Below, piece by piece: positions 1 through 2,716 of a stretch of 2,716 bases of DNA. Source of the DNA: Escherichia coli. Lineage in GTDB: Bacteria > Pseudomonadota > Gammaproteobacteria > Enterobacterales > Enterobacteriaceae. The notes beneath the pieces were generated by a model that worked only from the letters and a program-made list of their open reading frames with translations, ran no database searches and was not told the origin of the DNA. The position numbers and the translations under genes are program-made. Where the stretch lies: assembly GCF_003334315.1 (NCBI RefSeq), contig NZ_QOWR01000108.1; one strand, written 5' to 3'. How positions within the stretch are numbered: position 1 is the first letter of the stretch; every line of letters begins with the position of its first letter.

Positions 1-149
1 GGTTGAGAAGCGGTGTAAGTGAACTGCAGTTGCCATGTTTTACGGCAGTGAGAGCAGAGATAGCGCTGATGTCCGGCGGTGCTTTTGCCGTTACGCACCA
101 CCCCGTCAGTAGCTGAACAGGAGGGACAGCTGATAGAAACAGAAGCCAC
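1..149 (-). CDS. insA: IS1 InsA (transcriptional repressor / N-terminal part of the InsAB' transposase), N-terminal ~49 codons only; 3' end beyond the window
   Basis: Minus-strand translation from the GTG at 147-149 gives [49 protein letters not shown]..., the known InsA N-terminus with its Cys-rich zinc-finger-like motif. The frame is open to the window edge. Confidence 0.88.
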
Positions 150-181
150 TGGAGCACCTCAAAAACACCATCATACACTAA

Positions 182-204
182 ATCAGTAAGTTGGCAGCAT
201 CACC
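182..204. repeat. IS1 terminal inverted repeat (IRL, 23 bp)
   Basis: Reverse complement of 182-204 is GGTGATGCTGCCAACTTACTGAT. It matches the 2264-2286 terminus at 18 of 23 positions, consistent with the imperfect IRL/IRR pair of IS1. Confidence 0.9.
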
Positions 205-2263
205 CGGCAATACATAGTGCGCAATGCAGCGTGAGTTCGCGCCGTCTCCCCACTGAACCAGTAATTCACCAGACAATGGCGCACCACTTAAATAAACTTG
301 CCCGTCATCACCCACCATACTGGTTATTCCGGTACTGTTTTCCCGTACCAGTGATCCAAACGGCACCGGTTTTCCGCCCTGGGTAACGGTAATGAGCGCC
401 CGCACGCCTATGCGGGTATCAAAATTGGCACGAACCAACGCGCCTTGCGTCGGCACAACGCTGCTAATATTTTTTTCAACATCGATGGAATTCCCCATCG
501 TATTGGTATCAAGCGCGATACGGTTATACCGATAAACCGTGGCATACGGCATCACCGCATAGCCGCGCCAGTCGGTTAAAATGCCAGTTTGATTTTCAAT
601 GCGTACACCGCCTGCGCCAGGTGCTTTAATCAAAACATTGGTATCCCCTAAAGGCTGGCTCAGCGTTATGCCATTTTCATGCCCGACCACACCGCCAGAC
701 AGCTGCCAGTTAACGTCATGTTGATCGCGGTCGTAGTTATACCCGACCCCCAGCGTACCGTAAGCGGCCTGCCAGTTTGCCGTGGCGCTGCCCGTGTACC
801 CATTATTCGAGGTATCACCCTGGCTTACGTGATAACTCAGGTTGTGGCCTTCCAGTAAGGTCCCACCTACACCTGCCAGCCAGCTATTTTGCCCGTTGCT
901 GTTACGGTTGGCGTTAAAGGAGGCATAAGCGCGGTCGAGCGCATTTTCCCGGGTGTAGCGACGTTTGGTCAAAACATTGAAAGGCACTGAAACATTAAGT
1001 CCGACAATACGTTCGTTATCGGGGATCCCTACAGATTCATTCCACGAAAATGAGAGCGAATAACTGATGCCAACCCAGCTGCTGGTATACCCCACCTGAT
1101 ACCACGTATCTGAATCCGAAGTATTCCAGTATTTTTGATGGGTACCAGAGATATAAAGCGAGCCAAAGTCATTAAGTGATTGTGAAATATTTAACTGCAA
1201 ACGGTCTTTACGGCTAAAGCGTAAATTGTGGTAATTCACGATTATCGGTTCATCGCGATGCTCACCGTCGTAATCGTAATCATATTCGTACCCCTCCATT
1301 CGACGATACGCAACATCATCAAGGGTATAAAAACCTTGTGTCGAATAGCGGTAACCCATTAACTGAAAATTGGTGCCGAAGGTGTTCATTGATTTCGCAT
1401 AGAGGAAGCGAATGGAATCCCCCTCATGACGACTGTCGTCGGCTAACTGACTGCGCGCATGCGTTACATCCAGCGACACTGCGCCCCAGTTCCCGAGGTT
1501 GCGCCCCAGCCCTAACAAAAAGGCGGTGTAATTGGCAGATAATTGCGTCCCGCCGTAGGCAGTAAATTCCTGTGGTAAACCACCGAGTGCCGTGCCCTGA
1601 AAAAAGAAAGGTGATGATTGCTGACTATTACCGCTACGAAAATCGCCCGCCGTCAGATCAAATTTGAAACGCCCTTCGCGTTGTAAAATTGGCACTGTTG
1701 AATACGGAATTGTGTAATTCTGCTGATTGCCATCGCGCTCGTCGATGGTGACGTCCAGATCGCCATTTGAAGATGTCGGGTGCAAATCTGTAATTTCAAA
1801 AGCGCCGGGGGAAACATAGCTTTGATAGATAATAAAACCATTTTGCCGAATCGTTAGCTGGGCCGCCGTACGGGCAATCCCACGTACCGTTGGGGCAAAC
1901 CCTTGCTGGCTATCAGGATACATATTATCAGAAGAATAAAGCCGTACACCACGAAATCCAACGCCATCGAAAATATCACTTCCTGTATTGCCGTCTCCCA
2001 TTACCAGTTCACTTTTCAGCGGAATAATGGCGCGCTGTACCCAGGTGCCAATATTATTCCACTGTTCTGAATGATATCCATTTCCGCGAAAATAGTTCCA
2101 GGAACCATTGTTGCGTAAACGCCACGGGCCAATATTAATCCCGCTGAGCTCACTAAAAAAATAGCTATCGTTACCATTACCTCTGTTACCGGTGAAATTA
2201 TAATTCAGGAGTAAAGCAGGAATACCTTCATCCCACTCTTCAGGCGGAATGTAACCGTGAGCG
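205..2263 (-). pseudogene. Outer-membrane fimbrial usher (FimD/PapC family), internal fragment truncated at both ends by IS1; about 686 codons in one open frame
   Basis: The minus-strand translation carries conserved usher blocks: [24 protein letters not shown] (cf. FimD [25 protein letters not shown]), [66 protein letters not shown] (plug region), [23 protein letters not shown]...[56 protein letters not shown] and [33 protein letters not shown]. Composition is Gly/Asn/Tyr/Ser/Thr-rich, typical of a beta-barrel. There is no native start codon, signal peptide or N-terminal domain at the 5' side and no native stop at the 3' side; both ends abut IS1 termini. The specific usher paralog cannot be assigned without a search. 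Confidence 0.9.
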
Positions 2264-2286
2264 GGTAATGACTCCAACTTATTGAT
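2264..2286. repeat. IS1 terminal inverted repeat (IRR, 23 bp)
   Basis: 2264-2286 reads GGTAATGACTCCAACTTATTGAT, the canonical IS1 IRR terminus. It is followed directly by the reverse complement of the insB stop codon (tta at 2279-2281). Confidence 0.9.
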
Positions 2287-2716
2287 AGTGTTTTATGTTC
2301 AGATAATGCCCGATGACTTTGTCATGCAGCTCCACCGATTTTGAGAACGACAGCGACTTCCGTCCCAGCCGTGCCAGGTGCTGCCTCAGATTCAGGTTAT
2401 GCCGCTCAATTCGCTGCGTATATCGCTTGCTGATTACGTGCAGCTTTCCCTTCAGGCGGGATTCATACAGCGGCCAGCCATCCGTCATCCATATCACCAC
2501 GTCAAAGGGTGACAGCAGGCTCATAAGACGCCCCAGCGTCGCCATAGTGCGTTCACCGAATACGTGCGCAACAACCGTCTTCCGGAGCCTGTCATACGCG
2601 TAAAACAGCCAGCGCTGGCGCGATTTAGCCCCGACATAGCCCCACTGTTCGTCCATTTCCGCGCAGACGATGACGTCACTGCCCGGCTGTATGCGCGAGG
2701 TTACCGACTGCGGCCT
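2279..2716 (-). CDS. insB: IS1 InsB reading frame (C-terminal catalytic part of the InsAB' transposase); 5' end and the frameshift site are beyond the window
   Basis: Minus-strand translation matches IS1 InsB: ...[125 protein letters not shown], with TAA stop at 2279-2281. The track ORF starts at the internal ATG at 2654-2656, but the frame stays open upstream to the window edge, as expected for the frameshift-fused InsAB' product. Confidence 0.88.

Follow-up and report, generated by a model that had tools for sequence, protein, structure and literature searches.

The stretch of DNA analysed here (the window) comprises 2,716 nucleotides (nt) of a draft Escherichia coli genome (contig NZ_QOWR01000108.1, assembly GCF_003334315.1), in which the middle part of sfmD, a fimbrial usher gene, lies between partial copies of the insertion sequence (IS) IS1. 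The left piece (1–204, minus strand) corresponded to IS1 nt 204 down to 1 and was truncated by the start of the window, while the right piece (2264–2716, minus strand) corresponded to nt 768 down to 316 and was truncated by its end. The reference was the complete 768-bp IS1 copy of E. coli CP53 (locus L001, 8060–8827; L002 and L003 below are NZ_CP109924.1 and NZ_CP170298.1). Window 1–204 matched the last 204 nt of this copy with no mismatches, and window 2264–2716 matched its first 453 nt with one (at 2588, C versus A); both stubs were 99.8–100% identical to complete copies annotated as 'IS1-like element IS1A family transposase'. Chance was not an issue, because the matches were near-perfect over hundreds of bases.

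The inner end of each piece was a terminus of the element. The left inverted repeat (IRL; 182–204, minus strand) read ATCAGTAAGTTGGCAGCATCACC, the reverse complement of GGTGATGCTGCCAACTTACTGAT, and ended at the same point as the full IS1 copies of CP53, L002 and L003. The right inverted repeat (IRR; 2264–2286, minus strand) read GGTAATGACTCCAACTTATTGAT and coincided with the start of IS1 in CP53. The window therefore had the imperfect terminal inverted repeats of about 23 bp that define IS1 (GGTGATGCTGCCAACTTACTGAT and GGTAATGACTCCAACTTATTGAT). The initial annotation, made from the sequence of the window alone, had placed the IRL end at 204 and the IRR start at 2264 in the same orientation, with IS1 parts that do not overlap (nt 1–204 and 316–768); comparison with the CP53 copy confirmed these placements to the base. 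Both transposase frames were present, each partial at the window edge: the 5' part of insA (3–149, minus strand; 49 codons with a GTG start), which translates to the InsA N-terminus, and the 3' part of the insB' frame (2279–2716, minus strand), with its stop codon at 2279–2281. The open reading frame (ORF) at 2279–2656 on the minus strand matched NCBIfam NF033558, 'IS1 family transposase', at 127.9 bits (cut-off 100) over positions 100–199 of 199, and the Pfam domains Zn_ribbon_InsA and HTH_Tnp_IS1 were recorded for a longer IS1 copy on a related contig (L004). Thus, the stubs showed no sequence difference from IS1 of the 768-bp IS1A type, with IRL, IRR, insA and insB' placed as expected, although each copy lay only partly within the window. 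A search for internal repeats in the window returned only short chance repeats; IRL and IRR have no 9-nt exact seed in common and were hence not reported as an inverted pair. A scan against Rfam gave no match at gathering thresholds.

The DNA between the IS1 ends (the core; 205–2263, minus strand, 2059 bp) corresponded to nt 489–2547 of the 2610-bp sfmD, or codons 164–849 of 869, where the intact gene was taken from L007 (4938–7547). CP53 served as a ruler for the surrounding locus; window position 205 corresponds to L001 6001, and the stop and start of sfmD lie at L001 5938 and 9324 respectively. The core was 100% identical to CP53 3354965–3357023 and 99.0% identical at the nucleotide level to K-12-derived strains. 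That it is usher coding sequence, as first described, was borne out by NCBIfam NF011745, which it matched at 1539 bits (cut-off 975) but over profile positions 155–844 of 860 only. A search of 205–2263 against complete E. coli genomes located the intact ortholog, sfmD. The core was annotated as sfmD or fimD in 4149 of 5426 such genomes, and was at least 80% covered in 4110 of the 5426. It occupied 4150 places in those 4149 genomes, being found at a single place in all but one; the exceptional record, with two places, may hold a duplicated core or one interrupted by a large insertion.

Both ends of the usher were missing. The core lacked the first 488 nt of sfmD, which encode the signal peptide together with the N-terminal domain, as well as the final 63 nt (the stop and the 20 codons before it). 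An ORF nonetheless ran across it (178–2277, minus strand; 699 aa), starting at a TTG within the IRR, continuing through 686 sfmD codons and then through eight further codons (GDAANLLI) to a stop within the IRL. Pfam gave Usher, PapC_C and no more than a weak PapC_N; a full-length usher has the Usher beta-barrel, PapC_N and PapC_C in about 860–870 aa, and the fragment falls short of this. The core is a homologous usher fragment and not an intact member of the SfmD/FimD/PapC group, and the 699-aa ORF is a by-product of the two junctions and not a functional usher. Over the core, the window is 99.0% identical to the cryptic chaperone-usher fimbrial operon sfm (sfmACDHF-fimZ) of E. coli K-12, and the neighbourhood envY-tRNA-Arg-fimZ-sfmF-sfmH-sfmD-sfmC-sfmA-folD is common to its relatives. 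It differs from K-12 in that its usher cannot act as an assembly platform, because it is truncated at both ends.

Simple insertion of IS1 duplicates 9 bp (8–10 bp) of target DNA. The 9 bp adjoining the right IS1 piece, CCGTGAGCG (site R; 2255–2263), correspond to one copy of such a duplication seen in relatives. CP53 carried one IS1 exactly at window position 2263/2264 with CCGTGAGCG on both flanks, beyond which the 5' part of sfmD, sfmC and sfmA were intact, and CCGTGAGCG flanked IS1 on both sides in L020, L021, L023 and L024 also. The junction was matched in a single piece, at 100% identity, by at least 20 complete E. coli records, while the 172-aa ORF that the insertion creates by fusion with the sfmD N-terminus was indexed in 435 blocks of public assemblies. 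Judged by these relatives, the right IS1 is an ordinary simple insertion that is widespread in the CP53 lineage. Two checks set out in the initial annotation were answered here: the 9 bp recurred at the far end of the right copy, and the missing 5' portion of the usher continued directly beyond it in CP53 and other finished genomes. However, its proposal that the chaperone and major subunit genes had been removed was not supported, since sfmC and sfmA directly followed in every relative that kept the right IS1 junction and could be read past it, with the exception of the inverted arrangement in L029.

Two rearrangements were observed beside this insertion in other genomes. In L018 (AP021895.1) the IRR junction lay at L001 8022 rather than 8059, 37 bp of sfmD having been lost beside this end of the lineage-wide IS1, whose IRL junction and CCGTGAGCG were unchanged; this amounts to a miniature adjacent deletion. 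In L029 (OY754409.1, 3001–6204) the order was fimZ'-IS1(-)-sfmC(+)-sfmD'(+)-IS1(+)-sfmA(-), and the sfmC-sfmD' segment appears to have been inverted between two IS1 copies of opposite orientation.

Two IS1 copies in direct orientation around a segment form the architecture of Tn9 (IS1-cat-IS1), and the window had been headlined in those terms. The likeness consists of two direct IS1 ends, presumably belonging to two copies, around a segment of about 2 kb; such pairs can delete or amplify the segment by recombination. Yet an active composite transposon, IS1-sfmD'-IS1, movable as a unit, is scarcely credible on the present evidence. A composite transposon should be found as a unit away from its native locus with one flanking duplication, and neither was observed: no duplication flanking the unit was seen and no second location was found, the core having a single occurrence in every one of the 4149 genomes but one. 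There were no phage matches for the core, and its six 'plasmid' matches were either chromosomes under a wrong label or a 128-kb piece of chromosome, with intact sfmD in normal context. In finished genomes with this right junction the DNA past the IS1 was the continuation of sfmD, and it would seem that the segment never left its locus. Unlike the cargo of Tn9, this is a non-selectable fragment of a resident gene, which by comparison with relatives lies in its original place, and the unit would have arisen through two hits in one gene and not through capture and movement. The Tn9-like interpretation was therefore not upheld, the fragment being in its native locus and, with one exception, present once per genome, with no true plasmid or phage copy.

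Among the 'plasmid' records, L007 (NZ_CP137697.1, pEcFELIX533.1, 128.8 kb) held a chromosomal block, ybcH-envY-(IS1 in fimZ)-sfmF-sfmD-sfmC-sfmA-folD-cysS, and is probably a mislabelled or excised segment of chromosome; several of the others were 1.2–4.9 Mb long.

The left junction was far rarer. The 9 bp beside the IRL, CGGCAATAC (site L; 205–213), are presumed to be the target of the left IS1 and lie 63 bp before the sfmD stop. The IRL-CGGCAATAC junction was matched in a single piece in just two complete genomes, L002 and L003, and in no metagenome contig. In each case the IRR end of the same IS1 abutted fimZ within its 5' part (after nt 53 in L002, after nt 130 in L003), with no repeat of CGGCAATAC; hence, the recurrence of these 9 bp at the far end of the left copy, which had been put forward as a check, did not occur in either. 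The DNA lost, 2190 bp in L002 and 2113 bp in L003, included the 3' end of sfmD, sfmH, sfmF and most of fimZ. Rightward of the junction sfmD was otherwise uninterrupted, with no IS1 at site R. Both loci thus present an IS end abutting non-contiguous DNA without a target duplication, which is the signature of adjacent deletion. The IS1 of L002 (5273–6040) was a mosaic; it differed from IS1A at 28 places, of which 27 fell within the IRR-proximal 325 nt, and the IRL-proximal part was IS1A-like. Judged from this pattern, it is a recombinant of two IS1 variants, and so the footprint of a deletion by recombination between IS1 copies. The sfmD alleles of these genomes had 98.7% (L002) and 99.0% (L003) identity to the core, with 24 and 14 substitutions respectively plus small indels. 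An identical junction (window 204/205; L002 6040/6041; L003 6040/6041) was therefore present in three allelic backgrounds of sfmD. Because these backgrounds differ, the junction is more suggestive of separate events at a single nucleotide than of common descent.

Deletions of this kind have precedents. Adjacent deletions by IS1 or Tn9 arise through intramolecular target-primed transposition and leave the IS without direct repeats (reviewed in PMC9330008); in E. coli K-12 the classic case is the gal region. The left-junction IS1 of L002 and L003, which has no duplication and whose IRR is fused to fimZ 2.1–2.2 kb away, resembles the products of adjacent or recombinational deletion, and the losses in L018 (37 bp), L019 and L022 (4179 bp) likewise start from the IRR of the right IS1. 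In the genome of the window itself, a deletion past the left IS1 is inferred from these relatives. On balance, it is slightly favoured that the far end of the left IS1 was joined to the 5' part of fimZ here too, with loss of the 3' end of sfmD, sfmH, sfmF and most of fimZ; deletion is preferred because both resolved left junctions were deletions and because no plain insertion is on record at site L.

The most serious competitor is that both IS1 copies are plain insertions in an otherwise intact operon, with CGGCAATAC duplicated around the left copy and the last 63 bp of sfmD, sfmH, sfmF and fimZ still behind it. This is appreciably less probable than deletion, yet has several points in its favour. 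The nearest finished relatives, CP53, NT1F31, TOE3 and LCP22S3_I2, keep sfmH, sfmF and fimZ to the left of sfmD; plain insertion is the commonest outcome of IS1 transposition, and was seen elsewhere in sfmD in other genomes (SLK172); moreover, the mosaic IS1 of L002 implies that a separate IS1A copy once occupied site L. Such an insertion would have created the reciprocal junction, CGGCAATAC-IRR, but it was present in none of the 5426 complete genomes, an exact-pattern scan of metagenome contigs found none, and both left junctions that could be resolved were deletion junctions. The two accounts predict different neighbours for the window. With a plain insertion at the left site, a contig of the same assembly is expected to end in GCTTTGCTTCGGCAATAC joined to GGTAATGACTCC (IRR); with a deletion, one should end in the 5' part of fimZ (nt 53, 123 or 130) joined to GGTAATGACTCC, and sfmH and sfmF should be absent. 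A contig ending in GGTGATGCTGCC (reverse complement) joined to CCGTGAGCGCTACTCAACAA is expected under insertion and deletion alike.

The exact 699-aa chimera was recorded for just four NCBI draft contigs, all of 2–5 kb, and for no contig longer than 5 kb. Assemblies with a window-type contig include GCA_002462895.1 (NKEV01000100.1), GCA_004380855.1 (MTYF01000032.1) and GCA_004172665.1 (SAHT01000113.1). The three retrieved contigs, L004 (2576 bp), L005 (2473 bp) and L006 (2296 bp), had cores identical to that of the window, with zero mismatches, and all three likewise ended within IS1. The lengths of IS1 at left and right were 440 and 77 nt in L004, 359 and 55 nt in L005, and 118 and 119 nt in L006, against 204 and 453 nt in the window. 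This variation in stub length points to repeat-induced contig breaks at a multi-copy IS1, while the recurrence of the structure across separate draft assemblies argues for a heritable arrangement and not a one-off mis-join. Short contigs that end in repeats could, in principle, be prone to mis-joining, and IS1 ends might have been wrongly attached to a piece of sfmD. Such a chimera is very improbable, since each junction was matched base for base in independent finished genomes and the whole structure recurred with zero mismatches in three other draft assemblies.

Two side observations concern the same contig ends. Window position 2588, at position 325 from the IRR, was the sole mismatch to the CP53 IS1, and L002 and L003 also differed from CP53 there; contig L004 ended 4 nt short of this position, which fits contig breaks where IS1 copies diverge. 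Another short contig, L016 (GCA_003009435.1, PGKC01000087.1; 1807 bp), was bounded by IS1 on both sides and contained envY and a 5' stub of fimZ, displaying the same assembly phenomenon one gene block further to the left.

The contigs could also derive from a single IS1, either as a circle of IS1 plus the 2059 bp, formed as the reciprocal of an adjacent deletion or of recombination between IS1 copies, or as a tandem IS1-mediated amplification; a short-read assembler would output either in this form. An attack in cis by the right IS1 on CGGCAATAC would excise exactly these two junctions (by the mechanism in PMC9330008), and both the lack of overlap between the stubs and the lack of a resolved genome with both junctions fit this reading. 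The geometry is that of the IS26 translocatable units and pseudo-compound transposons, where a single IS can be released by an adjacent deletion as a circle together with DNA beside it (PMC12670165); IS26, however, belongs to another IS family with another mechanism, and there was no evidence here of a circle existing or reinserting. A circle of this kind has no replication origin, yet the identical structure was present on four contigs, with 2–4 samples listed for each contig shown. The chromosomal partner that excision would leave, running from CGGCAATAC-IRR to IRL-CCGTGAGCG, occurred in none of the 5426 complete genomes. Furthermore, the left junction stood alone in two finished chromosomes with no IS1 at site R, so that a circle is not needed to produce it. 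A single-IS1 origin was accordingly judged unlikely, though less so than a mis-assembly or a mobile unit.

Taken together, the window is probably a repeat-bounded short-read contig of a CP53-like E. coli whose sfm operon (sfmA-sfmC-sfmD-sfmH-sfmF, with fimZ) was broken twice by IS1. In the first step, IS1 would have transposed into sfmD at about codon 164, duplicating CCGTGAGCG and splitting the usher, as seen in relatives. A second IS1 in the same orientation would then have come to lie with its IRL 63 bp short of the sfmD stop, a junction that is seen in the window but whose history is conjectural; the route may have been intramolecular transposition of IS1 (adjacent deletion) or recombination between two direct IS1 copies. 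The assembler, unable to cross a multi-copy IS1, would have released the unique 2059 bp as a contig of its own with IS1 stubs at either end. The initial annotation had itself preferred independent IS1 hits or IS1-associated deletions in one usher gene, and this fits the data, the right junction being a simple insertion in CP53 and other finished genomes and the left a deletion in L002 and L003.

Four observations weigh against this account of two breaks by IS1. The window, L002 and L003 differ in sfmD allele, and the DNA past the left IS1 in those two genomes need not hold for the lineage of the window. When the fimZ'-IS1 fusion ORFs were looked up (44 aa for the fusion at nt 130 and 67 aa for that at nt 123), none of the samples displayed, which represent part of the places on record, had a window-type contig; the fusion at nt 53 encodes an ORF of 25 aa only. 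The IS1 stubs in the window do not overlap and hence are indistinguishable as copies, and no finished or long-read genome with both junctions was found. For this last reason, two distinct IS1 copies in the genome of the window are inferred and not seen, but are very likely.

The IS1-fragment-IS1 arrangement is a decaying pseudogene in its original place, and a substrate for further deletion between IS1 copies; it is not a transposon that has moved. A more reduced structure was seen in L019, L022 and L028 (CP058725.1, NBJA01000001.1), which read fimZ'(nt 123)-IS1-sfmD 5'(172 aa)-sfmC-sfmA, 4179 bp including the whole core having been deleted; it is possible that this is the end product of a window-type arrangement. 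All of the parts are of known kinds, namely IS1A, a cryptic chaperone-usher operon, pseudogenisation and deletion by IS, and repeat-induced contig breaks, and the window represents the ordinary IS-driven decay of a cryptic fimbrial operon and not a new mobile element. No paper dealing with sfmD and IS1 together was found in the library searched, and the listed titles and abstract openings of papers on fimZ and IS1 revealed none about IS1 in the sfm locus; IS1 insertions there are already annotated in RefSeq records. Beyond such bookkeeping the significance of the window is small. Neither a functional usher nor transposon cargo is a fitting annotation for the 699-aa 'usher' ORF, and the contig neatly illustrates the fragmentation of short-read E. 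coli assemblies by IS1 copies.

IS1 was found repeatedly at this locus in other genomes. There were 113 complete genomes in which sfmD had IS1 inside or beside it, and 31 in which an IS1 end lay at the 5' part of fimZ or close by. One 9-bp target in fimZ, CCATCGATT (L001 3879–3887, fimZ nt ~122–130; L003 5264–5272), carried IS1 in both orientations. It was entered IRL-first in L008, with the duplication at 3122–3130 and 3899–3907, and in L010 and L015, where the contigs end within IS1; it was entered IRR-first in L003, L009, L011–L014, L016 and L017. More IS1 ends lay within 80 bp of it. The other IS1 ends in fimZ were at nt 53 (L002), at nt 123 (L019, L022 and L028–L036; 41 assembly blocks) and at nt ~277–285 (L007). 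The pattern resembles a regional hot spot for IS1. A wider claim, that the sfm-fimZ region holds true IS1 target hot spots with recurrent, convergent inactivation in commensal or livestock-associated E. coli, is tentative and rather doubtful; it is left standing by the IRL-CGGCAATAC junction in three alleles and by the CCATCGATT target used in two orientations, with the further IS1 ends near it. If true, it could mean that there is selection against Sfm fimbriae or FimZ instead of neutral decay, and that the arrangement in the window is a transient stage that precedes complete deletion, as in L019 and L022. That IS1 has struck sfmD and 5' fimZ repeatedly, in some cases at an identical nucleotide, could in any case serve a study of IS1 target choice, or of selection on the cryptic Sfm fimbriae.

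Additional IS1 events were noted elsewhere in the operon. SLK172 (L037, 2394–3163) and a group of chicken isolates had an IS1 insertion in the middle of sfmD, and the EC26 group (L038, 3741–4547) carried an IS1 and had lost sfmC and the 5' end of sfmD; these events were independent, and both elements had the same orientation as the IS1 copies in the window. L024 had an extra IS1 between sfmA and folD (5315–6082, reversed, in window orientation), whose target corresponded to L001 11110–11119 and whose duplication was 10 bp rather than 9 (CGCCATCATG).

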